From positions 49,352-113,351 of IMG/VR virus record IMGVR_UViG_3300045988_147821: a stretch of 64,000 bases of DNA. One strand, written 5' to 3'. The stretch is from a virus. This document shows, piece by piece, positions 3,082 through 62,981 of the stretch (positions are counted from its first letter, which is position 1; each line of letters begins with the position of its first letter). Both the position numbers and the translations under genes were made by a program. The notes under the pieces were generated by a model. The model saw nothing but the letters and a program-made list of their open reading frames with translations. It was not told the origin of the DNA and made no database searches.

Positions 3082-3237
3082 GAACGCGCGGTCCGATTCC
3101 GAATGAATCATTTTATAAACATAAAAACATAAAAAGTGATAATTATCAGGAACCGCAATATTTACGGAAACGGATTGTGTACGGGTGTGGACCGTATGGG
3201 TGGCACCCGTTTAAAACCTTAAAAACCGAATGATTAT

Positions 3238-5835: not shown

Positions 5836-5915
5836 AAACCTATCAAAACCTATCAAAACCTATCAATTCCTATTTCAAAACCATTCAAAAAACAGCCCTC
5901 AAATCATTCAAAACC
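5836..5915. repeat. tandem 10-bp iteron-like array
   Basis: AAACCTATCA repeated three times exactly (5836-5865), followed by degenerate units (ATTCCTATTTCA, AAACCATTCA, AATCATTCA) at about 10-11 bp periodicity. Confidence 0.7.
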
Positions 5916-10894: not shown

Positions 10895-10930
10895 TCCTAG
10901 TCCTGGTCCTAGTCCTGGTCCTGGTCCTAG
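10895..10930. repeat. hexanucleotide microsatellite (TCCTAG/TCCTGG) x6
   Basis: TCCTAG TCCTGG TCCTAG TCCTGG TCCTGG TCCTAG, read directly from the sequence. Confidence 0.9.
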
Positions 10931-10942
10931 ACGATTGATAGT

Positions 10943-10972
10943 AAAAAAGTCGGACACATGAGGTGCCCGACT
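10943..10972 (-). terminator. hairpin terminator
   Basis: The minus strand reads AGTCGG-13 nt-CCGACT followed by TTTTTT. Downstream of 11037..11534. Confidence 0.55.
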
Positions 10973-11036
10973 GGTGCACCCCCCCAGGGGCAGGAGAGGG
11001 TGTTGCACAAATTTTCGATAGGAGAGGGGAGATCTG

Positions 11037-13415: not shown

Positions 13416-13527
13416 GATATTATTTAAATTTTCACCAAATAAAATAGCAAATAATTTAAATAAAATGGAGCACTCCATTACGAAGCACCCCATTTCAACT
13501 AAAAAACAAAAATAAGATATGGTAAAG

Positions 13528-13980
13528 TTATTTGATGGAGATATAGATATCGTCTTTTGTAGCAAGCAATCTTTTCATAAGGTTATGGAATGTTGCCGTA
13601 CTGTTCATTACCCTTCCTACAATAGAGTTTACTCCCACAAGCACGCAGCCGGAACTATCCTGTGCCGTATTTCCGACATGTATAAGAACACCCTCAAAGC
13701 CTGGTACGCCAATCAATCGTGGCAGTTTACCATCGTATGGTTTTGCCCACGATCTTTCCTTAAAACGCAAGGAAACGGTGTCCATGTCCACCTTATATCT
13801 TCCAGTAGGGATTGCAGTTTGTCCGTACACCTTTATTTCCTTGATTTTATGTTCGGGCATGTCTTGTGAAAGCCCTCTATCCTTATCCTCTATCGTATCG
13901 CAAAAGTCCTCCCCGTCAATGGAGAGTTTTCCTATTGTATAGGTTTCCTTTCTTGCTATTCGTCTAAGTTCAAGTTCCAT
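13528..13980 (-). CDS. YkuD-motif (L,D-transpeptidase-fold) protein, putative peptidoglycan-acting lysin
   Basis: 150 aa. VLIHVGNTAQDSSGCVLVG fits the H-x-G...S-x-G-C-[IV] active-site pattern of YkuD-fold enzymes. Confidence 0.45.
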   Translation of the reverse strand: MELELRRIARKETYTIGKLSIDGEDFCDTIEDKDRGLSQDMPEHKIKEIKVYGQTAIPTGRYKVDMDTVSLRFKERSWAKPYDGKLPRLIGVPGFEGVLIHVGNTAQDSSGCVLVGVNSIVGRVMNSTATFHNLMKRLLATKDDIYISIK

Positions 13981-14174
13981 ACTTCACTGTTTAAAATTTC
14001 ACTTAATTCATTACTGTCGTAAAGGTAAGAAGAAATCTCTTCATCTCCCAATACGGGTGCGACAAAATCCTCGTGTAACAGGATCATTGTTCCGTCAACA
14101 CTTCTTCTTGCGTGGATGGGCGGAACAATCCCATGTTCCATACACCATTTTATTGTTACTATAACGTATCTCAT
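13956..14174 (-). CDS. hypothetical protein (72 aa)
   Basis: ATGA overlap with the 485-aa gene at 14171-14174. Confidence 0.5.
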   Translation of the reverse strand: MRYVIVTIKWCMEHGIVPPIHARRSVDGTMILLHEDFVAPVLGDEEISSYLYDSNELSEILNSEVWNLNLDE

Positions 14175-15628
14175 TTTGTTATCAAATTTTCAAGTACATA
14201 ATTAATTAAATCCTGCTCGGTGAATCCGTCAGTTTCCTTGGTGGGAACTGAATCGAATCCTATGGAGTTGTAGAAAGCTGAACTAATCCATCCGCTATTA
14301 TGGTCAGTATTGCTAAAGAATATAGGAGTTTTAGTTTTATCACCTGTCACATCATTGTTTACTATGGTGATTATTTGCTTTTTGTTTAACAAAGCGGAAA
14401 CTATTGTAGATTCATTCAGTGTTCCATCAATATAGGTCTTGCCGTTTGAGTTCCTACTATTATAAGCAATACTACCTTTGTCATTGAATACGGCAAACAG
14501 CCAAGGTTCAGTAGTATTCAGTCTTTGGTCATAGATAAACTTTCCATCAACAAACGGATTAATAGTAGTAAACAACACCTTAACGCCCTGTTGCAAGTTC
14601 TGTATTTGCCCATAATCATCTACCCCATCAGTTACTAGGGCGTTGGGATATCTAGGTATAAACTCTATTGTTACATCCATATCTCCTGCACTTCCTGTAA
14701 CTCCTATGGCGTTATACAATGAAGTGGTTCCTTCGGGATAGGTTAATGTCACCTCATGTTCCCCGTTGTCAAAAGTATAAAATCCGCCATTTCTGTTTAC
14801 CAAACTAACTTGTCTGCCATCAGAAAGACCTGTAACCTTAAACTTATGCGTTGGGTTAGAGTTTGCCGGAACTATGTTTACCATGTTATCCGTAGTGGAT
14901 AGTTTTTTAGTAATATGAATAATTCTGTTATCTGTAACAGTAACATTTGCTCTATCGGGTAGAATATTGGTGCTAGAAATGTCATACCCTCCCACACCGC
15001 TCATTGCCGCGAACAGGAAATTGTTCAATTTAAGCGGTCTGTTGTTTCCGCTATGGTCTTGCAGGTATGGATTGGCTTTTAGTATCTCGTTTGTGGGAAC
15101 GGATTGTCCTGACGGTAGCTGGGTGATGGTGATGTTACAAGCACCGACAATATTGCCGTTTCTGAATGACAGATTACCCTTTACGGTTTTCAATGGCGGA
15201 ATATCATAGGTTCCGTCTGATGTAATATTAACTAATTTTACATTAGCACTATATCCCCAGTATAATTCCTGCCCCTCCAAAAGACCCTCAACAGTTACTT
15301 TCATTCCAGGAAAATTCTTTGTTTGGTCAGGAATGTAGCATTTTACTGTATCGTTCAGTGTAACAAATCTAGTTATGACAAATGAGGTGCTTGTTATAAT
15401 TACATCAGCATTTACAGAGGGATGCGATCTCCAGTCATTAAAATTTACCGCATAAACATCTACAGGCTTTGACATATCATACCAAAACACCATGTGTTCT
15501 TTCACCCATTTCGCATAATCAGGCGGAAGCGGTCCACCGCTTCCTGCCCTTCGTCTGAAAATAGTTCCGATTCCAATCATAGAATACGCTCCCGGAATGA
15601 TATAAAACGATTTCTTTCTTGCTGCCAT
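14171..15628 (-). CDS. LamG / concanavalin-like jelly-roll protein, putative tail fibre or receptor-binding protein
   Basis: 485 aa, beta-rich. The C-terminal segment ALVTDGVDDYGQIQNL...LFTTINPF...WLFAVF resembles the Laminin_G_3 pattern. Confidence 0.45.
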   Translation of the reverse strand: MAARKKSFYIIPGAYSMIGIGTIFRRRAGSGGPLPPDYAKWVKEHMVFWYDMSKPVDVYAVNFNDWRSHPSVNADVIITSTSFVITRFVTLNDTVKCYIPDQTKNFPGMKVTVEGLLEGQELYWGYSANVKLVNITSDGTYDIPPLKTVKGNLSFRNGNIVGACNITITQLPSGQSVPTNEILKANPYLQDHSGNNRPLKLNNFLFAAMSGVGGYDISSTNILPDRANVTVTDNRIIHITKKLSTTDNMVNIVPANSNPTHKFKVTGLSDGRQVSLVNRNGGFYTFDNGEHEVTLTYPEGTTSLYNAIGVTGSAGDMDVTIEFIPRYPNALVTDGVDDYGQIQNLQQGVKVLFTTINPFVDGKFIYDQRLNTTEPWLFAVFNDKGSIAYNSRNSNGKTYIDGTLNESTIVSALLNKKQIITIVNNDVTGDKTKTPIFFSNTDHNSGWISSAFYNSIGFDSVPTKETDGFTEQDLINYVLENLITK

Positions 15629-15639
15629 CTCATCTTATA

Positions 15640-15647
15640 CCCCCCCC
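15640..15647 (-). repeat. poly-G8 tract (plus strand C8), 11 nt upstream of the ATG at 15628
   Basis: Counted directly: C at 15640-15647. Confidence 0.9.
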
Positions 15648-15650
15648 TAT

Positions 15651-15951
15651 TTAATAACCGATATTGAATTGGGCAGTCGTTCCGTCCTTGAAAACCTTGT
15701 CAACGAGATAGGGGATCGGATATCCCATGGAAGCGTTCACTTCTGCTTCCGATATGGTGTAGGTGTCCTCCAAAGCGGATTCACCGACAAAATGAACTTT
15801 GATTGTTCCTGCTGTAAGGGGTATGATCAGGAATGTACCCCCCCCCTATTGAAAAGTCCTCCTGCAATGTTCCTATTGCCTTTGCACGGGCTATACTTAC
15901 AATACTCGTATGCCCCTTATCGTTAGATAATGTAACTCTATTTGGATACAT
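15651..15951 (-). pseudogene. small beta-rich protein gene interrupted by a poly-G9 tract (frameshifted or phase-variable)
   Basis: ATG 15951 plus 35 codons reach G9 (15838-15846). The protein-like continuation to the stop at 15651-15653 is in the +1 frame. G8 would give about 99 aa. Confidence 0.55.
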
Positions 15952-15982: not shown

Positions 15983-16024
15983 CAAAAATAGGAAAATCCT
16001 GTCAATTTCACAACTGGCAGGATT
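15983..16024 (-). terminator. hairpin terminator
   Basis: AATCCTG (15995-16001) pairs with CAGGATT (16018-16024). The minus strand continues TTCCTATTTTTG. Downstream of 16060..17196. Confidence 0.5.
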
Positions 16025-19605: not shown

Positions 19606-20102
19606 AAATCCCTAATTCTTTCGTTATCATTAAATTTCTTATAATTGGCAAGTCCGTCCGCTATATTGTTCCCCACTGCATCATCACTTACCTCATCCTT
19701 TTGGTGTGAACCTCCCTTAAGCCACATTATCCCTACTTTTGCAAGCGGATGGTTTCGTAACTGCAACAGGATTTCATTCCACAAATCGGAATTGCTGTAA
19801 TCCGTTGTAATATTCTTTCCATCATTAAGACATCGTGATATATGATGATTCATGAACTTTACTACAAATTCAGAATCGCATACTATCCTGGCCTTGATAG
19901 GATTACCCTTTGGAAGCAACTCCAAAGCGTTTACAATTGCCCTCATTTCCATTCTTGGAGTTGTGGTGTTACAATACCCTTCCCGAAAAAAAATCTCTTC
20001 TCCTGTGGTCTTATTTACCATGTAGACACCACATCCGCCAAGACGGCTCTTTGAATTGCATGAACCGTCCGTGTAAATATCCCATACATACCTTTCAATC
20101 AT
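19602..20102 (-). CDS. rnhA: ribonuclease HI
   Basis: DEDD residues in context: IYTDGSC, EMRAIVNAL, CDSEFV, NNIADGLA. Confidence 0.8.
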   Translation of the reverse strand: MIERYVWDIYTDGSCNSKSRLGGCGVYMVNKTTGEEIFFREGYCNTTTPRMEMRAIVNALELLPKGNPIKARIVCDSEFVVKFMNHHISRCLNDGKNITTDYSNSDLWNEILLQLRNHPLAKVGIMWLKGGSHQKDEVSDDAVGNNIADGLANYKKFNDNERIRDL

Positions 20103-32801: not shown

Positions 32802-35800
32802 CTAATCCAATTTTAATCGAACAAACTGGGAACGTCTTGTTATCTGAATAATGTTACAATCATCAAATTTACTGTAAGTAGGATACCCTGTTAAATACAA
32901 CAGGCAATCTTTAGAATTTTTGAAGTATTCAGACATTTCCTCATACAACTCACATCCTACCACTACATGGACAAAATCATAATTGCAATCAAGTTTGATA
33001 AAACCCATAAAACCGTTCTTGGTTTTCTTTTCCTCTACCTCCATCACATAGCCGCCTACTTTTACATCACTATATCCGTAGCCGTTATATTCCTGCAATT
33101 TTGAAGGTGAGAAATAGGGTGTACATTTATCAAGGTGCAATGAAAGCGTTTCATGATCAAACTCTCCGAATCCACAAAGATTGCGTTGCATGAGCATCCA
33201 CCACCAATCTTCTTCATGTTTCCCCTTATCGTATCCCAAAGATAGTTTATCCTTGCTCTTGTCAACCTTTACCTTACATTTGGTACGGTATATGTCAAGT
33301 AGGAAGTATCTTTCACTAGGATGCTCAACGTGTTCAAGTTCATCAAATGCACCACAATAGATGAGGTTCTCTATGGCTGACTTGGTAACTTTGCTGTTCT
33401 TGAAATTATGACGGTCAAGAAATTCCTCCAGAGAAAAATATTCCCCGTTCTTATCCCTTTCCTCATTCAACTGATTCAATGCCTGTTCTCCTATCTGTTT
33501 AACAGAATTGAGTGACCAGTACATTGAATTTGTTTCCTTGTCGGATACGATATGACTTCTTGAATGATTGATATTTACCGTCTTGATACCGATATTACCC
33601 GTCTTTTCAATCTCATTGATATATAAAGGGTATTCGTCCATCTTGGCCCATGTAAAGGTTACTGACCAAAATTCCATAGGATAATGAACTTTCAGCCATT
33701 GGCAAATGTAAGAAATTATTGAATAGGAAACTGCGTGGGCTTTATTAAACGAATACTTTGCAAACTCTTCCATCATAGAAAAATAGTCCTCTGCATATTC
33801 TTTTGTTACACCCCATTTGCTTATATACCCATCAACAAATTTTGCCTTCAATTCTGCCATTACATCTGCCTTCTTCTTACCCATAGCTTTACGAAGATCA
33901 TCCGCTTCCATAGATGTAAATCCTGCAAGTGTTATAGATGCTTGCATCACGTTTTCCTGATACAGCAACAGTCCGTAGGTGTCTTTCAGGAAGGATTCGG
34001 TTCCCGTAAGGTATTCCACTTCTTCATTACCGTTTTTACGTTTTACATAGGAATAATGAATACCGTTTTCAAGCGGTCCAGGGCGATACAGTGCCGTACA
34101 TGCAGATAATTCCTCTACTGAATTGGGCTTCATTATCTGTGCATAACCGTTCATTCCTTTGGCTGTGAATTGGAATACATCACCATTCCATCCGTTTCCA
34201 AAGTATTTCATCACTTCTGGCTCATTCAATGGAATATCCTTGTACGGGTCAATAGCTGTTCCTGTGTTCTGTTTGATAAGTTCAAGAATATCATGTATCT
34301 TGTCCAACTGATTAAGACCAAGAATATCCTCTTTCAGGAATCCTGCATGATCAAGTTCTCCGCCTTCCCATTCACATACCATTTGATTTGTGTCCGATTC
34401 AAGTCGTAATGGGGACCATTCAAACATTGTTCTGTCTTGTGGGAATATCATTTCCGCACAGGCATGAATAGAGCGTGCCTTTGGTGCTCCAAGTATTACA
34501 AACAGGTCATTGAACATTTCCGTATTCTTTCGCATGAAAGCACGGAACTCGGCTTTTTTCAATGCTGTTCTGAACAAGTCCTCTACGGTCTTTTCCTTTT
34601 CCTCTCCCAACATCTTGGAAATACGTTTTCTTTCAGGAATAGCGACACCGTATTTATCTCCCATATCATTTATTGCAGCTTTCAACTGCAATGTTGTATA
34701 TGTTCCTACGGCACATACCTGTTTTGTTCCAAAACGTTCTTCCATATACCGTTTAACTTCCTGCCGTCTGTTAGTAGGAAAGTCGGTATCAATATCAGGT
34801 AAGGATTTCTGAATACGTCCTTTGTTTAGGAAACGTGAAAAGAACAATTCGTATTTCAATGGATTTACCTTTGTCAATCCAAGTAGGTACACCACAGCAC
34901 TTCCTGCACACGAACCACGACCTGGCCCTACAAGAATGTTTTGTGACCGTGCCCAATTCACAATGTCACGAAGTATAAGGAAGTAATCCACTACACCACC
35001 GAAACGGATAACATCTATTTCTTCATCTATACGTGCAAAAACAGCTTCCTCTCCGTATTCCTCTATCAGTTCGGGATGATTCTCCAATCCCTCATAGATA
35101 AGGTCTACAAACATCTCGTCATTGGTCCTCCACCGTTTCTTTTCTTCTTCGGTCATTATATACCATGGAAGATGCCTTGATTTTGAATCAATGACAAAGT
35201 TACAGTTCTCTGATACATAGCGAAGATTTCCTATCGCATCATCCCATAAATCAAACATAGAATCATCGTTCCCAAACAATGCCTGCATTTCAAGGAAATA
35301 TTCCTGGAAGTTCTTGAAATATTGATTGGATGATTTATAGTTCGTTATTTTGAGAATTGAATTTATCTTTTCACGTATATAGGCATATTCGGGTTCAAGA
35401 TAATAGGCGTCACAAATGGCTATAAACCTGCATTTCTTGGAATAGAACATTTTCAGATTTTCAAGATACCATTTATCCCTATCATCCTGTTCATATTCCA
35501 CTGTATCAAACTGAACGTACATTTCATCTTTGCCCAATACATAATCCAACAGATATTGACATTCAACAGTTTTAGGATCTGCCACTGTAAATGTATGCTC
35601 CTTATAGGATTCAGATTTCGCCAATGAAACAAACTCATTCAATGTACAATATTCCTTATGGATTACATTACATAAGCGATTCAGTTCAAGGAGCATTCTC
35701 CATCCATCTTCATCCCTTGCATATACCTTGATTGTAAAGCGAATATCTCTTTCTTCATCGAGAACAGGAACTTCCATTCCGAATACAGGCTTTATTCCAT

Positions 35801-36251
35801 ACTTCTGACATGCTTCTTGAAACTTGAATGCACCCGAAAGATGTCCTTTCTCACAAATACCTAAAACGGTTATGCTAAGCCATTTTGCCTTAATGCACCA
35901 TTCATCATAGGAGTGCATACCATCAAGAAGCTGCATGTTTCCATGAACACCAAGAAAAGCTGATTCTCTAAAATCTTCTTCTATTTCGGGTTCCGAAAGA
36001 TACAGTACCTTGTTAAGTTTCACATCATTCTCACTCCCCTTTTTTAACCAATACCATACACCGCCAAAGGAATAGATATAATTATCACATTCGGTGTATG
36101 CAGTATCCCAGTGAAAGTCACGGTCAAAAAACGAGTTGCTTTCATTAGGAAGGGATAATTCATACGTTTCACATCCTATTTCCACAACCCTATCACTGAT
36201 ATGTGAGAAAGGAATAAAATGATCTTTCAGATATTGAATTAATTCGTTCAC
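32802..36251 (-). CDS. dnaE: DNA polymerase III alpha subunit (DnaE-type, family C)
   Basis: 1149 aa. GPGRGSCAGSAVVYLLGLTKVNPL and the catalytic motif LPDIDTDF. The N-terminal PHP-like region has a degenerate His motif (FLGVHGNMQLLDG). Confidence 0.85.
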   Translation of the reverse strand: MNELIQYLKDHFIPFSHISDRVVEIGCETYELSLPNESNSFFDRDFHWDTAYTECDNYIYSFGGVWYWLKKGSENDVKLNKVLYLSEPEIEEDFRESAFLGVHGNMQLLDGMHSYDEWCIKAKWLSITVLGICEKGHLSGAFKFQEACQKYGIKPVFGMEVPVLDEERDIRFTIKVYARDEDGWRMLLELNRLCNVIHKEYCTLNEFVSLAKSESYKEHTFTVADPKTVECQYLLDYVLGKDEMYVQFDTVEYEQDDRDKWYLENLKMFYSKKCRFIAICDAYYLEPEYAYIREKINSILKITNYKSSNQYFKNFQEYFLEMQALFGNDDSMFDLWDDAIGNLRYVSENCNFVIDSKSRHLPWYIMTEEEKKRWRTNDEMFVDLIYEGLENHPELIEEYGEEAVFARIDEEIDVIRFGGVVDYFLILRDIVNWARSQNILVGPGRGSCAGSAVVYLLGLTKVNPLKYELFFSRFLNKGRIQKSLPDIDTDFPTNRRQEVKRYMEERFGTKQVCAVGTYTTLQLKAAINDMGDKYGVAIPERKRISKMLGEEKEKTVEDLFRTALKKAEFRAFMRKNTEMFNDLFVILGAPKARSIHACAEMIFPQDRTMFEWSPLRLESDTNQMVCEWEGGELDHAGFLKEDILGLNQLDKIHDILELIKQNTGTAIDPYKDIPLNEPEVMKYFGNGWNGDVFQFTAKGMNGYAQIMKPNSVEELSACTALYRPGPLENGIHYSYVKRKNGNEEVEYLTGTESFLKDTYGLLLYQENVMQASITLAGFTSMEADDLRKAMGKKKADVMAELKAKFVDGYISKWGVTKEYAEDYFSMMEEFAKYSFNKAHAVSYSIISYICQWLKVHYPMEFWSVTFTWAKMDEYPLYINEIEKTGNIGIKTVNINHSRSHIVSDKETNSMYWSLNSVKQIGEQALNQLNEERDKNGEYFSLEEFLDRHNFKNSKVTKSAIENLIYCGAFDELEHVEHPSERYFLLDIYRTKCKVKVDKSKDKLSLGYDKGKHEEDWWWMLMQRNLCGFGEFDHETLSLHLDKCTPYFSPSKLQEYNGYGYSDVKVGGYVMEVEEKKTKNGFMGFIKLDCNYDFVHVVVGCELYEEMSEYFKNSKDCLLYLTGYPTYSKFDDCNIIQITRRSQFVRLKLD

Positions 36252-41998: not shown

Positions 41999-44824
41999 TT
42001 AAAGCATTGTTACCACAGGTTCACTTCCCTTACCTTCTTTCAATGACTGATAGGCAATGAATATAGAGGACACGCAATCATCATGACCGGACCCTGCTTC
42101 AAGTTTCCCTTTGTCAGAGCGGAATGTAATGGAAGAAAACTCGGAAAACAGATAATCCGTTTTCTCTTTTGTTGTCCCTGCCTTGTATGGTATCTTGAAC
42201 TGACCTCTTTCAAAGAGTGCTGCAAGACTGGCCCATCCGTTATGTAAATCCTTCTTGTTTCCTTCTGTCGTAGTAAATGTATCTATATTCATTAATCCAC
42301 GTTCCCTTGCCAATCCTGCAAGAATGGATTGGAATCCGTTGGATTCACATACCACCTTGTTAGGTCTGAACATCTGATCCAATACCACTATCTTATCCAC
42401 CTGTTCATTGTGACTTGCACCTTTAAGGCGTTCGTAATAGATTAGGTAGTAGTTTTTCATTGCATCCATGCCAACAACAGAGTAAACGGTAAAGTCTGCT
42501 CCGATATTACCTGATATGGCAAAATCCACACCTATAACAACCCGTGTCATTTTAATAGGGAAATTATCGACAGTCGTTGCATAATCCACATTTTCCATCC
42601 CTATCGTAGTACGTTTAAGGATATCGTATGGAAATATAGACGAACTATCGTCAATAGGAATAACAAGGTACTCACGTGCAAATACGGTTGTTCCAAGTTC
42701 TTCCTTCTTTCTTATAAGGTCCTCAAATGTATATCTGTCGGGGGCAAGCGGTCTGCCATCGGGGAAAATTATAGGATATTCAAAACACTTGAAACGCTTG
42801 TCGGCTTTTATCACCTTATACAAGTCCGATTCAGCATTGGAAAACGGTGTTCCCGATATAATGAAATATCCGAACGGTTCCACTGTCGGTTCAATCGTAC
42901 CTTTGATAAGTTCCTTTATCTTCTGCCGTGCTTCTTCACTGTAAAGACTTGATTCATCCGGCATATCGTCCACTACACATGCCCCGGTATGCAAACCACG
43001 GATTGCAGAACTGGCACCTCTGATATGGATTATCGCACCTGTTTCAGTCTGAACGCCCATTTCACCAATCTTGGCCCGATTATTAGGATTCAACTTCTCC
43101 TTTATGATTTCGTTGTTATCTATCTCATTGATAATCTTTGTCATGTGTGCCTTACATAACTGGATAGAAGATGATATGAGAGAGGTTTCCTTGTAATTAT
43201 TGTTGAACACCATATACCTTGGATCATCCCATGAATGTGGCACATCATAGCCGTATAACCGCCATAAAGGAAAGGCATAACAATACTGATAACTGTTATG
43301 TGCAACAGTTCCATCAGCAAGTAAAAACTTGTGATCACCGTCACAGGCAAATCCATAATATTCACCTTCCCCCACAGGATGTACAGTCAAGGAAGATACT
43401 TGTGGATCTTGAACCTGTTCCACATACTGAACCTGTTTCCTTTTGATTCTGGTGGGAAGATTATGTAATTTACCCGATATATTCATACGATAAAAAACAT
43501 AATCTTTCAGTATGTATTCACCTCTTTTCTTCGACTTTACTTTTATATTCTTACACTCTCTTTTTACAGTCTTACATCTGAATCCAAGTGACCATGCAAG
43601 TTGTTGTACTTGATAAGCAAGTTTTTCATCTTTGGATGAATACTCAAAAGACCTGCCTGTTTTTGGTAAACCCAATCTCTTTGCCCTGTCTGCATCACAA
43701 CAACCATCTGTATCTAGTAATCCTGCCAGCAATTCCAGTCGTTGTTGTCGGGATGCCCTCATGTATATATCAGGAATATGCTTGTTATTTAAAAGCCCCA
43801 TATCCTTCAATATCTTTGTTAAAGGCAACACGGTATCTGATTTTTTACTCCTTCCCCTATACCTAGGAATTTTTGGATCATATATCTGTGACCTTAACGA
43901 CCCTCTTTTGTAACAACCATTTCTATAACTGGCAACACTCAATCCAAGTCTTTCAGCATATTCACATAGATATTCATATATTTCAATATCGGGTTTTGAT
44001 ATACAAGAATTATGTGAATACCCATCCCCCAACCATATCCCTAAAAAATATGGTTCCAACGGAAGTTCCTTTTCAGGCAAATCCCATCCTTCAACTCTGT
44101 ACCCGGAAATTTTCTTTTGGCTATATCCAGGGTGTTTCGGGATATCTTGCACAGGAATTTCCTTATATATTATTTCAGAATAGGATTTATGCGGTTTTTT
44201 ACTTACCTCAACCCTTCTAAGATATCTTGCACAAATAAGATGCCCTTCATTCACTGCATAATCCATTGCATAGGATTGTTTCACCTTATACATAGGAGCG
44301 ATGCCATGATGTAATTCAAGTACCGTTCTTGGTGTTGAATCAATTCCCATCACCTTATCACCTACCTTAATGTCCTGTATCATTTTTGTACTTCCATCAG
44401 CCATAACAACGTAAGTACCTGGTTCCAAGCACTTTCCACTTCCGCGTGATGCAAGATAACTACTCCAAGGATATAGCTGCATCAGAGATCCCTGTTCCAG
44501 ATTACGCCAGTTCATGCGGAAGTTGGAGAGCACGGTTGTACAGAAATAGTTGAACGACATCTTTTTCAACTGTAAATCCATGGACGCTTTTAGATTATCC
44601 AAGTAATCCAAACTTTCCGAATCAATGGTTTTTCCTATGAACATGGCTTTCTCTGCCGACATCATCATCGAATGAATCAGAGCATCAATGTCACCCATAT
44701 ACCCTGTCGTGAGTTCATCTATTGCCTTTGTGGGAAGTTTGGATATGATGGTTTCCACCGTATCAAACAACCTTCTTTCCTGCAAGGATGTAAGGGTTAC
44801 GTTTTTATCAATAGAATCAATCAT
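41999..44824 (-). CDS. terL: terminase large subunit interrupted by a LAGLIDADG intein in the P-loop
   Basis: ASRGSGK|intein|SYQY restores the Walker A motif. Walker B ACVVDD. RNase-H-like nuclease motifs IGVDFA, ESNGFQ, HDD. About 562 aa after splicing. Confidence 0.8.
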   Translation of the reverse strand: MIDSIDKNVTLTSLQERRLFDTVETIISKLPTKAIDELTTGYMGDIDALIHSMMMSAEKAMFIGKTIDSESLDYLDNLKASMDLQLKKMSFNYFCTTVLSNFRMNWRNLEQGSLMQLYPWSSYLASRGSGKCLEPGTYVVMADGSTKMIQDIKVGDKVMGIDSTPRTVLELHHGIAPMYKVKQSYAMDYAVNEGHLICARYLRRVEVSKKPHKSYSEIIYKEIPVQDIPKHPGYSQKKISGYRVEGWDLPEKELPLEPYFLGIWLGDGYSHNSCISKPDIEIYEYLCEYAERLGLSVASYRNGCYKRGSLRSQIYDPKIPRYRGRSKKSDTVLPLTKILKDMGLLNNKHIPDIYMRASRQQRLELLAGLLDTDGCCDADRAKRLGLPKTGRSFEYSSKDEKLAYQVQQLAWSLGFRCKTVKRECKNIKVKSKKRGEYILKDYVFYRMNISGKLHNLPTRIKRKQVQYVEQVQDPQVSSLTVHPVGEGEYYGFACDGDHKFLLADGTVAHNSYQYCYAFPLWRLYGYDVPHSWDDPRYMVFNNNYKETSLISSSIQLCKAHMTKIINEIDNNEIIKEKLNPNNRAKIGEMGVQTETGAIIHIRGASSAIRGLHTGACVVDDMPDESSLYSEEARQKIKELIKGTIEPTVEPFGYFIISGTPFSNAESDLYKVIKADKRFKCFEYPIIFPDGRPLAPDRYTFEDLIRKKEELGTTVFAREYLVIPIDDSSSIFPYDILKRTTIGMENVDYATTVDNFPIKMTRVVIGVDFAISGNIGADFTVYSVVGMDAMKNYYLIYYERLKGASHNEQVDKIVVLDQMFRPNKVVCESNGFQSILAGLARERGLMNIDTFTTTEGNKKDLHNGWASLAALFERGQFKIPYKAGTTKEKTDYLFSEFSSITFRSDKGKLEAGSGHDDCVSSIFIAYQSLKEGKGSEPVVTML
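43295..44431 (-). mobile_element. full-size intein (379 aa) with LAGLIDADG homing endonuclease
   Basis: Begins CLEPGTYV (Cys codon 44429-44431). LAGLIDADG motifs FLGIWLGDGY and LLAGLLDTDG. Ends TVAHN (Asn codon 43295-43297) with +1 Ser. Confidence 0.8.
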
Positions 44825-60728: not shown

Positions 60729-61634
60729 TTATTTGTTATGTAATTTATCATATATTTCTCTTACCTGTTTATACCTTTCTTCCTGCTTCTTTGTGAACGG
60801 CATGAAGGAATGATTTAACCACCGACATATATAATAACATTTATCATTGGAATAATCAGTTTTATCAATATCAATAAACCAATCAATGTCATTCTTCATT
60901 TCTCTTGCAGAAATAAAGGCATCAATAAGTTTTGGATATTTCATAAGTCCTATGTAATTGCTATTGAAATTTGCTTTCGGGCAAACAATACATCCAACTC
61001 TTTTGCAATAATCATATTCGGGATTTATAGGTAATGAATATTTATGGATATAATCCCATACATCCTTATCCGTCCAATCTATAATAGGCTTTAATTGTAT
61101 GATGGAAGCGGCACCAATAGACTGACAATGTTCTTCAAAATAGGAATCAAACAATTCTTTATTTTTCTTTAAAGTCGTTTTGTTTTTCGCTTCAAATGCC
61201 GTCCTATTACTCCTACTCCTACTTTCAGCTTTCCTTACTCCCGTAATACTGCACGCATCCACATATTTAGGATTGTGCTTATAATCCTTGCAACAATAAG
61301 CTATTTGTACAGTAGGAAGGATGGATTTGTGGTTTTTCCATATATTTTGTATAAACCCGAATTTATAATCACGCCTCCATATTACATCGGGATAGTTTTC
61401 TTTTATGAACCTTAATGTAATATTATTTTCAAAGGCATGGTTGAAAAAGGCTTTGAACGGTATCCCGGCACGTTTGCAAAGGTCATAACATACCTGACTA
61501 TCTTTTCCTCCCGAAAAACCCAAATGTACTTCCAACCCCATTGTTTTAGCTATCTTACTGAATTTTTGTATTCTAGTAATGGCTAATTGTTCTTTTTCAT
61601 CCATAACCATTTGTTCATCTATTATTTCTTTCAT
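60729..61634 (-). CDS. PAPS-reductase-family PP-loop protein
   Basis: PP-loop LGFSGGKDS, GVRKAESRSR, IIDWTDKDVWDYI..LPINPEY, GCIVCP. Confidence 0.7.
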   Translation of the reverse strand: MKEIIDEQMVMDEKEQLAITRIQKFSKIAKTMGLEVHLGFSGGKDSQVCYDLCKRAGIPFKAFFNHAFENNITLRFIKENYPDVIWRRDYKFGFIQNIWKNHKSILPTVQIAYCCKDYKHNPKYVDACSITGVRKAESRSRSNRTAFEAKNKTTLKKNKELFDSYFEEHCQSIGAASIIQLKPIIDWTDKDVWDYIHKYSLPINPEYDYCKRVGCIVCPKANFNSNYIGLMKYPKLIDAFISAREMKNDIDWFIDIDKTDYSNDKCYYICRWLNHSFMPFTKKQEERYKQVREIYDKLHNK

Positions 61635-62499: not shown

Positions 62500-62981
62500 C
62501 TAATTTATTCTAACGTACTTACCTGCAATATCACAAGTTTTTATTACCTCCGCATTATCCTCACCAAAAGCGATGAGAATACTACCACAGCCGGGAGAAT
62601 CTCCACGAGTTCCGTCTGGACGGAAGAATCTGATTCGGTTACGCAAGAATTTCATTGCCGTTGCCTTCTCGAATATCACATCCTGAAACATCTTTGAATC
62701 GCAACGATTGAAAAGTAAAGCAATGCCGTTTCCATGTTCTGCCATCCGTTTAACGAAACATTCTATAAGAGGACGGGAATAAGATGGGTTCAACCAAACG
62801 CGACCTTTCCATTCCTGTTTTAATCCATCGTCATTTTTGTTGTACATGACATTTGCCGTTTTATAGGGGGGGCTACTGGGGCACATGGGTCTAAATCAAA
62901 TTCACCCAATGCGTCTATAATTTCTTTCGGTGTGTACCATTCATCGGTACTATTAGCCGATTTTTCAAAAGTTGTATTCAT
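62500..62981 (-). pseudogene. phage Dam-type N6-adenine DNA methyltransferase split by a frameshift at a C7 tract
   Basis: The N-terminal piece MNTTFEKSANSTDEWYTPKEIIDALGEFDLDPCAP (ATG 62981) and the C-terminal piece ...WLNPSYS...RIRFFRPDG... (track ORF 62500..62886) are in different frames. They join if C7 (62866-62872) were C8. Confidence 0.6.

Follow-up and report, generated by a model that had tools for sequence, protein, structure and literature searches.

The stretch of viral DNA analyzed here, 64,000 nucleotides in length (hereafter, the window), carries on its minus strand two runs of G, tract 1 and tract 2, within a gene cluster that spans on to position 13461 and whose gene order is identical in all relatives (Table 1). 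A small gene appears to head this cluster and is followed by the genes for a 485-aa, putatively lectin-like protein, a 72-aa protein, and a DUF5675 protein. Upstream of the small gene, a hairpin with a T-rich tail overlaps TATTTTTG (15983-15990), which we take to fit the Bacteroides -7 promoter motif TAnnTTTG; a sigma-70 scan does not list this site. This segment may form both the boundary and the promoter of the cluster. The window gave no hits in Rfam or tRNA scans, and a sigma-70 promoter and terminator scan around the tracts gave no signal above that of shuffled sequences.

Table 1. Positions of the features discussed, in window coordinates
Feature	Position	Strand	Description
Hairpin and T-rich tail	15983..16024	(-)	After a 378-aa gene; read directly from the sequence
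Truncated small ORF, window state	15781..15951	(-)	56 aa: 35 codons of the conserved part, GGG, then 18 codons out of frame
Tract 1, G9 on the coding strand	15838..15846	(-)	In the small gene, at the position of codons 36-38 (Gly); out of frame (OFF) in the window
ON-frame continuation of the small gene	15651..15839	(-)	62 codons (GTFLIIPLTAGTIKVHF...PYLVDKVFKDGTTAQFNIGY) and stop
Tract 2, intergenic G8	15640..15647	(-)	4 nt past the small-gene stop; 11 nt before ATG 15628
N-terminal extension of the 485-aa protein	15581..15628	(-)	Clade specific; 16 codons (MAARKKSFYIIPGAYS)
485-aa protein	14171..15628	(-)	Predicted disordered 32-aa leader and three beta-sandwich (jelly-roll, lectin-like) domains
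72-aa gene	13956-14174	(-)	Overlaps the stop of the 485-aa gene
150-aa DUF5675 gene	13528-13980	(-)	Occupies the slot of the annotated endolysin in cr6_1
Terminator-like hairpin	13461-13497	(-)	Part of the cluster
Tract 3, coding-strand C7 (plus-strand G7)	62866..62872	(-)	In a Dam-like DNA adenine methyltransferase gene, 62500-62981

In the window sequence, the small open reading frame (ORF) begins at ATG 15951 and reads through 35 codons (MYPNRVTLSNDKGHTSIVSIARAKAIGTLQEDFSI) into tract 1, which appears on the plus strand as a run of C. The continuation, GTFLIIPLTAGTIKVHF...FNIGY with a stop at 15651-15653, lies in a different frame from the ORF upstream of the run. An earlier note on this DNA had described G9 as breaking a small ORF, and the sequence agrees: the ORF ends after 56 aa at 15781. 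The continuation is joined to the start only when tract 1 is G5, G8, or G11 (ON), giving a protein of 98 to 100 aa (99 aa at G8 and 100 aa at G11). At the remaining lengths (OFF), the conserved C-terminal part has no usable canonical start codon before codon 23 in its frame. The earlier note had also placed G9 at the head of the 485-aa gene. Tract 1 lies instead inside a separate gene upstream of it, one that is conserved among relatives. Replacing the G run with GGAGGTGGC provides a design for a locked-ON allele of tract 1.

Searches with the small protein were uninformative. It matches nothing in Pfam or PHROGs, PDB sequences gave nothing useful, an exact-sequence look-up with a 40-aa C-terminal fragment found nothing, and the AlphaFold2 model is unusable (pLDDT 38.7).

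Tract 2 lies between the stop of the small gene and ATG 15628, exactly 11 nt from the latter as the earlier note had it, and the full distance from stop to start is 22 nt. It sits in an insertion of about 68 nt that is absent from the sister clade (L003 to L007), whose homologue of the 485-aa protein begins at the Met of MIGIGTIF, corresponding to window position 15580. The polymorphisms in the N-terminal extension that the window has in addition are approximately 7 synonymous and 2 conservative nonsynonymous (counted by eye from the haplotypes), indicating that ATG 15628 is a real start. Predicted folding of the leader RNA with tract 2 set from G4 to G11 leaves the accessibility of the start codon unchanged, so an RNA-structure switch at tract 2 is not supported and was rejected.

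Both tracts vary in length among near-identical phages

We compared about 45 loci of near-identical phages drawn from independent public assemblies (IMG/VR, ENA, JGI, and Logan), with tract lengths taken as the consensus lengths of the assemblies. Alignment of orthologous loci, a check proposed in the earlier note, shows both tracts to be present and variable in length among the relatives. Tract 1 is G5, G6, G7, G8, G9, or G11, and tract 2 ranges from G5 to G10; the G run is uninterrupted in all of the approximately 45 loci at tract 1 and wherever it can be scored at tract 2. Lengths differ between haplotypes in which all 385 nontract flanking positions are identical. On a shared flanking haplotype, tract 1 is G7 in one locus and G11 in another (L010 and L020) or G7 and G9 (L009 and L026), while tract 2 measures 5, 6, or 8 nt within one haplotype and 6, 8, or 10 nt within another. 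Different tract lengths between identical 385-nt flanks indicate that the tracts mutate far faster than point substitution. Control homopolymers in the same 2.6 kb (A5, A6, T5, G5, and C5) are constant, except for one lineage-wide A6/A5 split. The hypermutability suggested in the earlier note by its comparison with Campylobacter phages is thus borne out by length variation among near-identical genomes; the gene that contains G9 is the small putative partner gene and not the 485-aa gene itself.

Intact in-frame alleles occur at three lengths, G5 (P0003), G8 (P0002), and G11 (P0001). By sequencing run, the lengths include G5 in SRR23278748 and DRR807735, G6 in SRR30190370, G8 in SRR29907859, G9 in ERR12816060 and SRR20648026, and G11 in SRR31707921. 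The earlier prediction that G8 or G11 would restore an ORF of about 99 aa therefore holds at both lengths and extends to G5. The OFF alleles, of length G6, G7, or G9, keep an intact continuation, and truncated products of 55 to 56 aa are called in many assemblies (P0023, P0026, P0029, P0031, and P0032). Contig counts from look-ups and a protein-search table give roughly 7 intact ON alleles against at least 44 of the G6/G9 class, an excess of OFF that fits selection for the OFF state but fits ongoing gene loss as well. In-frame alleles tend toward a shorter tract 2 (Fisher P = 0.015), a trend on which we do not rely because the loci are not independent. A clean 198-bp deletion between the two tracts is present in relatives L018 and L019.

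The 485-aa protein is probably tail associated or host binding

The AlphaFold2 model of the 485-aa protein has three beta-sandwich domains (pLDDT 85.5, pTM 0.82). A whole-chain fold search of the PDB with this model returns only weak multidomain jelly-roll matches. Matches in BFVD include proteins of crAss002, cr56_1, and cr106_1 together with LamG/ConA-like and tail proteins, and those named LamG-like or ConA-like have E values of 1e-7 to 1e-4 with whole-chain TM-scores of only about 0.2. A 224-aa relative has the same FDGVDDYG motif. At the sequence level, neither the 485-aa protein nor its distant homologues match Pfam at E <= 0.01, with no significant LamG-type profile (e.g., Pfam Laminin_G_3) among them; the protein has no PHROG match either. 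The term "LamG-type" used in the earlier note thus stands for a fold-level resemblance suggested by the model and its matches, and not for a Pfam or PHROG assignment.

More than 7,780 homologues of the 485-aa protein were found. They contain cassette-like variable segments; four different leaders alternate, and a C-terminal CarboxypepD_reg domain is optional. It is hypervariable and mosaic between strains, and the protein is highly mosaic across gut phages. Several homologues lie near tail genes: one (P0037) adjoins a 2039-aa Peptidase_S74 tail-fiber gene, gp22 of crAss002 has homologous domains and falls within the presumed tail and receptor-binding region of that phage, and in cr6_1 and MT835473 the homologue is located between the tail-fiber gene and the endolysin gene. 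In the window, the 485-aa gene comes after replication genes and before the DUF5675 gene, for which no homology to an endolysin has been shown. The 485-aa protein is probably a tail-associated or host-binding protein. The receptor-binding role named in the earlier note is putative, suggested by mosaicism and gene position.

This phage has a DnaE-type polymerase, whose nearest counterparts are the polymerases of Cellulophaga, Tenacibaculum, Chryseobacterium, and Bacteroides DAC phages. The sole nucleotide similarity between the window and the crAss-like phage cr6_1 is a module of about 180 nt at the 3' end of the 485-aa gene. With so short a match and a DnaE-type polymerase, identification as a crAss-like phage was dropped (the window excludes the structural module). 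A "terminase" PHROG match of a 941-aa protein was also set aside, as the protein is really helicase-like. A scan of GTDB genomes returned no match and hence no clue to the host from genome bins.

A methyltransferase tract and a parallel locus in another lineage

The Dam-like gene that contains tract 3 is OFF at C7, as in the window, and encodes an intact 160-aa protein at C8; the C8 reconstruction matches Pfam PF05869 (E = 5.8e-13). Across 58 IMG/VR contigs, tract 3 is 6 (n = 1), 7 (n = 15), 8 (n = 35), 9 (n = 5, plus 1 interrupted), or 10 (n = 1) nt long. In another lineage (L117), an unrelated small ORF carries a poly-G tract of G6 to G10 in 23 loci, with the ON frame intact in 23/23. The gene downstream of this ORF, which we read as RBP-like, is one of a tandem paralogue pair near a Peptidase_S74 tail-fiber gene.

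Only four G/C runs of 6 nt or more occur in the window. Compared with a first-order Markov model, runs of 4, 5, and 6 G/C are strongly depleted (126 observed versus 196 expected, 25 versus 47, and 0 versus 11.3, respectively). About 0.9 runs of 8 nt or more are expected per window; two are seen, 190 nt apart. Runs of A8 or A9 are located at 19986, 47408, and 51696. The flanks of the fourth run (C7, at 10979) had no match when scanned in IMG/VR.

A probable slipped-strand contingency locus and its alternatives

Considered as a whole, the data are best explained if both G runs are real hypermutable homopolymers forming a slipped-strand contingency locus, a reading that we regard as probable. A pure repeat lies within an ORF (G9) or just before a start codon (G8), its length varies far above the background of indels at stable control homopolymers, it toggles the reading frame with both ON and OFF alleles in existence, and the switched gene is under purifying selection, as detailed below. 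Slipped-strand mispairing during phage DNA replication would add or remove G residues. Tract 1 at lengths of 3n+2 (5, 8, or 11) would encode a linker of two to four Gly residues between a 35-aa N-terminal part and a conserved C-terminal part of 61 aa in a protein of about 99 aa, whereas other lengths would lead to a stop after a few out-of-frame codons. The window is in this OFF state. Tract 2 would be an intergenic tract of the same type just before the real start of the 485-aa gene, and the two tracts may serve together as short direct repeats between which the 198 bp are occasionally lost.

In poly-G-free relatives, the small gene abuts or overlaps the next start, which leads us to regard it as a functional partner of the 485-aa protein, possibly an adaptor, a chaperone, or a translationally coupled partner. 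This role is a guess, as the small protein has no recognizable family or confident structure. Switching of the small gene within a population would produce progeny that differ in a tail-associated host-interaction function, a form of bet-hedging that could affect host range.

The small ORF might instead be mainly a phase-variable leader, with termination-reinitiation gating the 485-aa gene through tract 1 and through the spacing set by tract 2. The arrangement of stops and starts suits such coupling: they are 3 nt apart in poly-G-free relatives L003 to L007 (TGATCTATG) and overlap in L114, which also lacks poly-G, the ON-frame small ORF of the L117 lineage overlaps the ATG of the next gene, and the length of tract 2 alters only the stop-to-start distance. 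Coupling of this kind would matter in a host phylum in which Shine-Dalgarno-led initiation is largely absent. However, the small protein's own sequence is strongly conserved, which argues that it is more than a leader, and the predicted accessibility of the start codon is the same from G4 to G11. We consider the leader reading unlikely, while granting it a real chance.

We give a low probability to the possibility that the tract is a mutational hotspot in a gene undergoing loss in this clade, such that the small gene is a decaying pseudogene and the length variation is neutral noise. Out-of-frame alleles dominate at tract 1, and intact ON alleles number 0/12 among loci collected regardless of tract state. 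The three G8 loci in this set each have a second lesion: an ATA start codon (L001), a 1-nt deletion (L002), and a rearranged low-coverage contig (L015). The 198-bp deletions between the tracts are irreversible, and an IS605/TnpB element is inserted just upstream of the small gene in some relatives. Against decay, the ON-frame continuation in the poly-G clade has 14 synonymous and 5 nonsynonymous polymorphisms (pN/pS 0.11, binomial P = 6e-6), which segregate among poly-G-bearing haplotypes, and the corresponding pN/pS values in the two other frames are 2.2 and 1.6. The post-tract segment is therefore under purifying selection only in the ON frame, although recombination with lineages in which the gene is intact could have brought in part of the synonymous polymorphism. 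Apart from relatives with some other rearrangement or deletion, every OFF relative has the continuation intact; its 62 codons contain no stop codon or second frameshift in the more than 30 OFF loci that retain it, and intact alleles exist at all three in-frame lengths. In the sister clade (65% amino-acid identity), the small gene is intact at 106 aa, and a variable linker occupies the tract site; in that clade, deletion-induced frameshifts have been independently corrected, keeping the C terminus in frame.

Recoding, in place of switching at the DNA level, appears still less probable. RNA-polymerase slippage or ribosomal frameshifting on the G run would then yield some full-length protein at every length, so that genomic OFF states would leak and tract length would do no more than adjust how much protein is made. 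Purifying selection persists though most genomes are out of frame, and both out-of-frame classes (G7 and G6/G9) are common, as recoding would allow; long homopolymers are slippage sites for RNA polymerases and ribosomes. But programmed sites are normally fixed in length and frame, and no slippery run of fixed length and frame is conserved among relatives at tract 1, where every frame occurs and lengths range from 5 to 11. In addition, the sister clade has no G run at this site, we found no conserved stimulatory structure or Rfam family match, and transcriptional slippage is known mostly at A/T runs. Recoding and switching at the DNA level are not mutually exclusive. A sequencing or assembly artifact, with miscalled homopolymer lengths and a gene that is really intact, is hardly credible: homopolymers, especially poly-G, are error-prone on several platforms and the window by itself is compatible with a 1-nt error, but consensus lengths of 5 to 11 come from dozens of independent assemblies made with different pipelines, the OFF lengths recur in at least 40 contigs, neighboring homopolymers are stable, and three further tracts behave likewise.

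Beyond the slipped-strand reading of this locus, we tentatively raise the possibility that gut Bacteroidota-type phages have a multilocus contingency system, in which poly-G gates small partner or leader genes before exchangeable host-binding cassettes and poly-C gates a Dam-like methyltransferase. If so, each burst would consist of virions mixed in both adsorption apparatus and DNA methylation, a phage counterpart of the phase variation that Bacteroides hosts show in their capsules and restriction systems; recurrence of this layout in the other lineage, where the small ORF is unrelated, would represent convergent evolution of the strategy.

Relation to known contingency loci

The earlier note knew of no equivalent in Bacteroidota-type phages, and our literature searches likewise found no report of a poly-G switch in Bacteroides or crAss-type phages. 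The locus would thus add to a kind of switch known from Campylobacter and T-even phages one that, as far as these searches reach, is seen for the first time in gut Bacteroidota-type phages. To date, poly-G phase variation in phages has been viewed as an exceptional trait of Campylobacter phages (PMC11959909); its extension to T-even phages came only in 2025 (PMC12633550).

In Fletchervirus phages of Campylobacter, genes for receptor-binding proteins contain poly-G tracts (Sorensen et al. 2021, Cell Rep 35:109214; PMC11959909, PMC12823448, PMC10877375). As these reports outline that system, it resembles the present one in its lytic-type phage, in G runs of about 7 to 11 nt in or near host-recognition genes, and in frame shifts that diversify the progeny there and would do so here. 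By the same outline, the coding tract here differs in residing in a small gene upstream of the lectin-like protein and not in the binding protein itself, the second tract is intergenic, and the tract pair also causes deletion. The host phylum and phage type are likewise unrelated to those outlined for Fletchervirus (here, DnaE-type polymerase, Bacteroidota-phage-like).

T2, T4, and other phages have simple-sequence-repeat contingency loci, whose reversible homopolymer frameshifts have been interpreted as bet-hedging against host defenses (Gomez, Barrick and Waters 2025, bioRxiv, PMC12633550). A DNA-modification gene is among the targets in both cases, T2 agt paralleling the Dam-like gene with tract 3 (PMC12633550). 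The tracts in those phages are mostly A runs of 6 to 9 nt, measured as low-frequency variants within lysates (PMC12633550), whereas the tracts described here consist of G or C and differ in consensus length from one natural population to another, in a genome that otherwise avoids G/C runs. Bacterial contingency loci and phasevarions include poly-G tracts in Campylobacter, Neisseria, and Haemophilus (PMC8355987, PMC5084427). They share with the present locus the placement of G/C runs in the 5' part of an ORF or before a start codon, a length spectrum of several units, the preservation of ON and OFF frames, and methyltransferase genes among the targets. In contrast to these cellular loci, the present one belongs to a virus and is replicated by the phage's own polymerase.

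Other phage host-range diversifiers include diversity-generating retroelements, such as that in the Bacteroides Hankyphage, and the invertible tail-fiber segments of Mu (Gin). They serve the same aim, a population heterogeneous in host-interaction proteins, by an entirely different mechanism; no reverse transcriptase, template repeat, or invertase was found at the present locus. Bacteroides hosts escape phages via phase-variable capsules and surface proteins, which raises the question of how their phages keep up. Gene callers split or drop such genes and consensus sequences hide heterogeneity, so switches of this type are systematically missed in virome annotation. The locus is a concrete and testable example from abundant, uncultured phages of the human gut, with a natural G5 to G11 series in public data, a second switchable target in the same window (the DNA methyltransferase), and a parallel locus in another lineage.

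A two-tract locus ahead of a putative receptor-binding gene

The two poly-G tracts on the minus strand of the window probably form a slipped-strand contingency locus, the reading best supported by our comparisons. Slipped-strand mispairing would alter the length of tract 1, toggling a functional partner of about 99 aa for the tail-associated, lectin-like 485-aa protein; the window is in the OFF (out-of-frame) state at this tract, and tract 2 is a second hypermutable run. With the G9 of the window, the frame of the small gene closes after 56 aa at 15781. A G8 run gives an ORF of 99 aa and a G11 run one of 100 aa, in agreement with the single ORF of about 99 aa that an earlier note had predicted for these lengths. 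The window sequence likewise bears out the two runs, the broken small ORF and the G8 run before the next ATG. That note placed both tracts at the head of a LamG-type gene, which holds for the G8 run, 11 nt upstream of ATG 15628, but not for the G9 run, which lies in a separate small gene.

Features of the locus and of other variable sites (window positions unless a contig is named)
Feature	Position	Strand	Description
Gene cluster			Order: 378-aa gene, hairpin with T-rich tail, small gene, 485-aa gene, 72-aa gene, DUF5675 gene, hairpin
Small gene	ATG 15951	-	35 codons MYPNRVTLSNDKGHTSIVSIARAKAIGTLQEDFSI, then tract 1; read from the window sequence
Tract 1	15838-15846	-	G9
ON-frame continuation	stop 15651-15653	-	GTFLIIPLTAGTIKVHF...FNIGY; frame other than the G9 frame of the window
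Tract 2	15640-15647	-	G8; begins 4 nt past the small-gene stop, ends 11 nt ahead of ATG 15628
485-aa gene	14171-15628	-	
72-aa gene			Overlaps the stop of the 485-aa gene
DUF5675 gene			150 aa, after the 72-aa gene
Terminator-like hairpin	13461-13497		End of cluster
Dam-like DNA adenine methyltransferase gene	62500-62981		Contains tract 3
Tract 3	62866-62872		Plus-strand G7, coding-strand C7
PAPS-reductase-domain gene	60729-61634		PF01507
C7-A-G4 run	10979-10990		Non-coding
GC-rich stretch	10900-10990		Non-coding, downstream of a DUF4494 gene
(GTCCTR)n array	10900-10929		5 perfect tandem units
P0037-lineage small ORF	L117 5824-6045		Tract 5874-5881; also in L116 and L119-L139
Sister-clade 24-nt repeats	L003-L007 ~3097-3187		Direct repeats, 67 nt apart
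TnpB gene	L018, L026, L044, ~1138-2370 in each		IS605 family (OrfB_IS605 / Cas12f-like), 410 aa

The genes of the window lie mostly on the minus strand and include a DnaE-type polymerase, DnaB-like and SNF2 helicases, a UvsX-like recombinase, SbcCD, a NAD-dependent ligase and methyltransferases. The DnaE-type (Pol III alpha) polymerase is nearest to those of Tenacibaculum, Cellulophaga phiST, Chryseobacterium and Bacteroides DAC16 phages (33-38% identity); this replicative polymerase, with phages of marine and gut Bacteroidota as nearest kin, is encoded at 32802-36251. At the nucleotide level, the window resembles a crAss-like phage (cr6_1) only in a module of about 180 nt, with which the 485-aa gene ends on its 3' side. 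Given this polymerase kinship and the limited similarity to cr6_1, we describe the window as that of an uncultured human-gut, Bacteroidota-type phage; a crAss-like label was dropped on the same two grounds. A PHROGs label of terminase for a 941-aa protein (41999-44824) was rejected, the protein being helicase-like by tblastn. Relatives are contigs of 100-114 kb, and the gene order of the cluster is identical in all of them. In cr6_1, the slot of the DUF5675 gene is held by an annotated endolysin, and no sequence homology was found between the two proteins. Three relatives carry a TnpB gene between the 378-aa gene and the small gene, on the opposite strand.

The 485-aa protein has no sequence match in Pfam, PHROG or PDB, and its LamG-type designation survives as a fold-level resemblance. 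A confident AlphaFold2 model built from 30 sequences (pLDDT 85.5, pTM 0.82) predicts three beta-sandwich domains after a disordered leader of 32 residues. The model matches uncharacterised proteins of crAss002, cr56_1, cr106_1 and cr109_1 in BFVD (E = 1e-14 to 1e-11), followed by entries with LamG-like, ConA-like lectin and minor tail or tail fibre names (E = 1e-7 to 1e-4; their whole-chain TM-scores are low); PDB matches are weak. Homologues of the protein number more than 7,780 at E < 1e-3, almost all of them singleton 90% clusters, and form a mosaic family: the N-terminal leader comes in four alternative forms, two regions vary like cassettes, and a CarboxypepD_reg domain at the C terminus is optional. 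Residues 178-465 are repeated 2-7 times in proteins of 600-2,700 aa. P0037, a 90%-identical homologue, is encoded directly after a 2039-aa Peptidase_S74 tail-fibre gene, the homologues in cr6_1 and MT835473 lie between a tail-fibre gene and an endolysin, and crAss002 gp22 lies in the presumed tail region of that phage. These positions argue for a tail-associated role, and we may reasonably infer a putative receptor-binding function. A 93-aa remnant, cr6_1 gp05, consists of a leader and the last 50 aa at 78% identity.

Tract lengths vary among close relatives

Compared with a first-order Markov model of the whole window, G/C runs of 4 (126 observed, 196 expected) and 5 (25 observed, 47 expected) are depleted, and runs of 6 are absent (11.3 expected). 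Four runs reach at least 6: C7 at 10979, tracts 1 and 2, and G7 at 62866. About 0.9 runs of at least 8 are expected per window under this model; two are observed, 190 nt apart, and such a pair in a genome that avoids G/C runs indicates that tracts 1 and 2 did not arise by chance. At least three of the four longer runs vary among relatives, and the fourth (10979) differs in the single relative compared.

Related loci came from a peptide-based IMG/VR scan, an exact-flank scan of metagenome contigs and exact-protein look-ups, yielding about 45 loci 94-99% identical to the window. Aligning these orthologous loci, as the earlier note had proposed, revealed that both tracts are present and length-variable, with G5, G6, G7, G8, G9 or G11 at tract 1 and G5-G10 at tract 2. 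Tract 1 is G6 in one, G7 in five, G8 in three and G9 in three of the 12 loci gathered regardless of tract state. Length differs even between haplotypes that match at every one of the 385 non-tract positions in the small-gene region: tract 1 is G7 in L010 and G11 in L020, and G7 in L009 and G9 in L026, while tract 2 is 5, 6 or 8 within one haplotype and 6, 8 or 10 within another. Control homopolymers in the same 2.6 kb (A5, A6, T5, G5 and C5) are length-stable except for one lineage-wide A6/A5 split. Across about 39 close-clade loci, tract 2 tends to be shorter where tract 1 is in frame (G6-7 in 7 of 8) than where it is OFF (at least G8 in 20 of 31; Fisher P = 0.015), an association that may reflect lineage structure because the loci are phylogenetically non-independent.

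Tract 2 is intergenic and bounds a deletion with tract 1

In the sister clade, which lacks poly-G, the small-gene stop is directly followed by the start codon at MIGIGTIF (TGATCTATG), and in L114, a related locus, the small gene and the next gene overlap. The poly-G clade carries an insertion of about 68 nt that holds tract 2 as well as 16 extra N-terminal codons (MAARKKSFYIIPGAYS). Substitutions in this extension, counted by eye across haplotypes, are mostly synonymous in the MAARKK frame (about 7, with 2 conservative non-synonymous), which identifies ATG 15628 as a real start and tract 2 as truly intergenic. Tract 2 cannot extend the 485-aa ORF because an in-frame TAA lies 6 nt upstream of this ATG. 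Since the 3' edge of the tract is fixed relative to the ATG, its length alters only the distance from the upstream stop, and predicted start-codon accessibility is unchanged when the leader is folded with G4-G11. We hypothesize that the small gene is translationally coupled to the 485-aa gene; that it serves mainly as a leader through such coupling seems rather unlikely.

Tracts 1 and 2 have common flanks (AATA-Gn-TA) and behave as direct repeats. L018 (merged G9) and L019 (merged G6) have lost precisely the intervening 198 bp, which fuses codons 1-37 of the small gene to the 485-aa gene leader; the fusion runs on in the MAARKK frame in L018 and in the short upstream frame in L019. This deletion is the sole demonstrated consequence of tract 2. 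L018, one of the three TnpB-bearing relatives, also has a nonsense codon in the 485-aa gene leader.

The small gene is conserved in its ON frame

The fused small protein belongs to a family of 98-139 aa without Pfam annotation and with an invariant C terminus (PYLVDKVFKDGTTAQFNIGY). Relatives that are 45-70% identical lack the G run; at the tract 1 site they carry a variable linker of 8-15 residues, which the poly-G clade has swapped for Gly2-4. Intact in-frame alleles have three lengths, represented by proteins P0003 (G5, 98 aa), P0002 (G8, 99 aa) and P0001 (G11, 100 aa). Every OFF locus not otherwise rearranged or deleted retains an open, conserved 62-codon continuation in the ON frame. Within the poly-G clade, ON-frame polymorphisms comprise 14 synonymous and 5 non-synonymous changes (pN/pS 0.11, binomial P = 6e-6); the continuation gives 2.2 and 1.6 in the two wrong frames, and the N-terminal part of the gene gives 0.29. 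No canonical start codon was found from which the conserved part could be translated on its own in OFF states. Together, the open ON frame, these ratios and the lack of an independent start indicate that the small gene is kept by selection, though most sampled genomes are out of frame.

Neutral decay, with the small gene being lost and its tract varying without function, would agree with the rarity of intact ON alleles. Look-ups and the protein-search table give about 7 ON contigs against at least 44 of the G6/G9 class, a count outside which the G7/G10 class falls because its short products are not called by gene finders, and the three in-frame loci of the unbiased set each carry a second lesion: one starts with ATA, one has lost 1 nt and one lies on a rearranged contig of low coverage. 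The ON-frame pN/pS and the intact continuation in OFF loci speak against decay, which we consider unlikely; the rarity and second lesions are also compatible with selection for OFF across most of the populations sampled. Leaky expression by recoding on the G run is improbable. Consensus tract lengths that differ by up to six bases across many pipelines are not base-calling noise, making an assembly artefact very unlikely and essentially excluding miscalled lengths.

The sister-clade small gene shifts frame by a 67-nt deletion between its 24-nt repeats (proteins P0021, P0022 and P0025 examined). Simulating this deletion yields residues 1-55 of both P0022 and P0025, each of which regains the normal frame at its own point and so keeps the conserved C terminus. 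The repeats are read in two frames, as VALSKFTS and GVIKVHF.

Further variable tracts and known systems

At tract 3, C7 stops the Dam-like protein after 51 aa, and C8 yields an intact 160-aa protein matching PF05869 (E = 5.8e-13). Its length across 58 IMG/VR contigs is 6 in 1, 7 in 15, 8 (in frame) in 35, 9 in 5 plus 1 interrupted, and 10 in 1, and no ON-frame stop occurs within the ~345 nt examined in 25 loci with the start motif located. The gene appears switchable and is a candidate phase-variable phage methyltransferase. The PAPS-reductase-domain protein, encoded two genes downstream, may be part of a DNA-modification module. The P0037 lineage has an unrelated small ORF, flanked by two paralogous RBP-like genes (363 and 336 aa, with an identical N terminus), that is interrupted by a G run; the run is G6-G10 in 23 loci, with G9 in frame and the continuation intact in 23/23. 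This ORF, the sister-clade frame shifts and the further tracts suggest that frame switching at small genes before putative host-binding genes is recurrent.

As the earlier note stated, receptor-binding genes of Campylobacter phages are known to be switched by poly-G tracts: this is described for Fletchervirus (Sorensen 2021), cited in PMC11959909 as "an exceptional case". In 2025, T2 and T4 were reported to contain homopolymer contingency loci (PMC12633550). A full-text literature search for Bacteroides and crAss-type phages found nothing comparable, in line with the note's knowing of no equivalent in Bacteroidota-type phages. Compared with the Campylobacter and T2/T4 systems, the switch here would lie in an upstream partner gene, paired tracts cause deletion, and a methyltransferase of the same genome also appears switchable. 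A slipped-strand contingency locus would thus be of a kind already known in phages, to which this gut Bacteroidota-type locus, known from assembly consensus sequences, adds.

The fourth run, C7-A-G4, reads C5-A-G6 in L013, a related contig. The GC-rich stretch that contains it also holds a hairpin and the (GTCCTR)n hexamer array, whose perfect units are flanked by partial ones and which is shorter in L013 (about 2-3 units).
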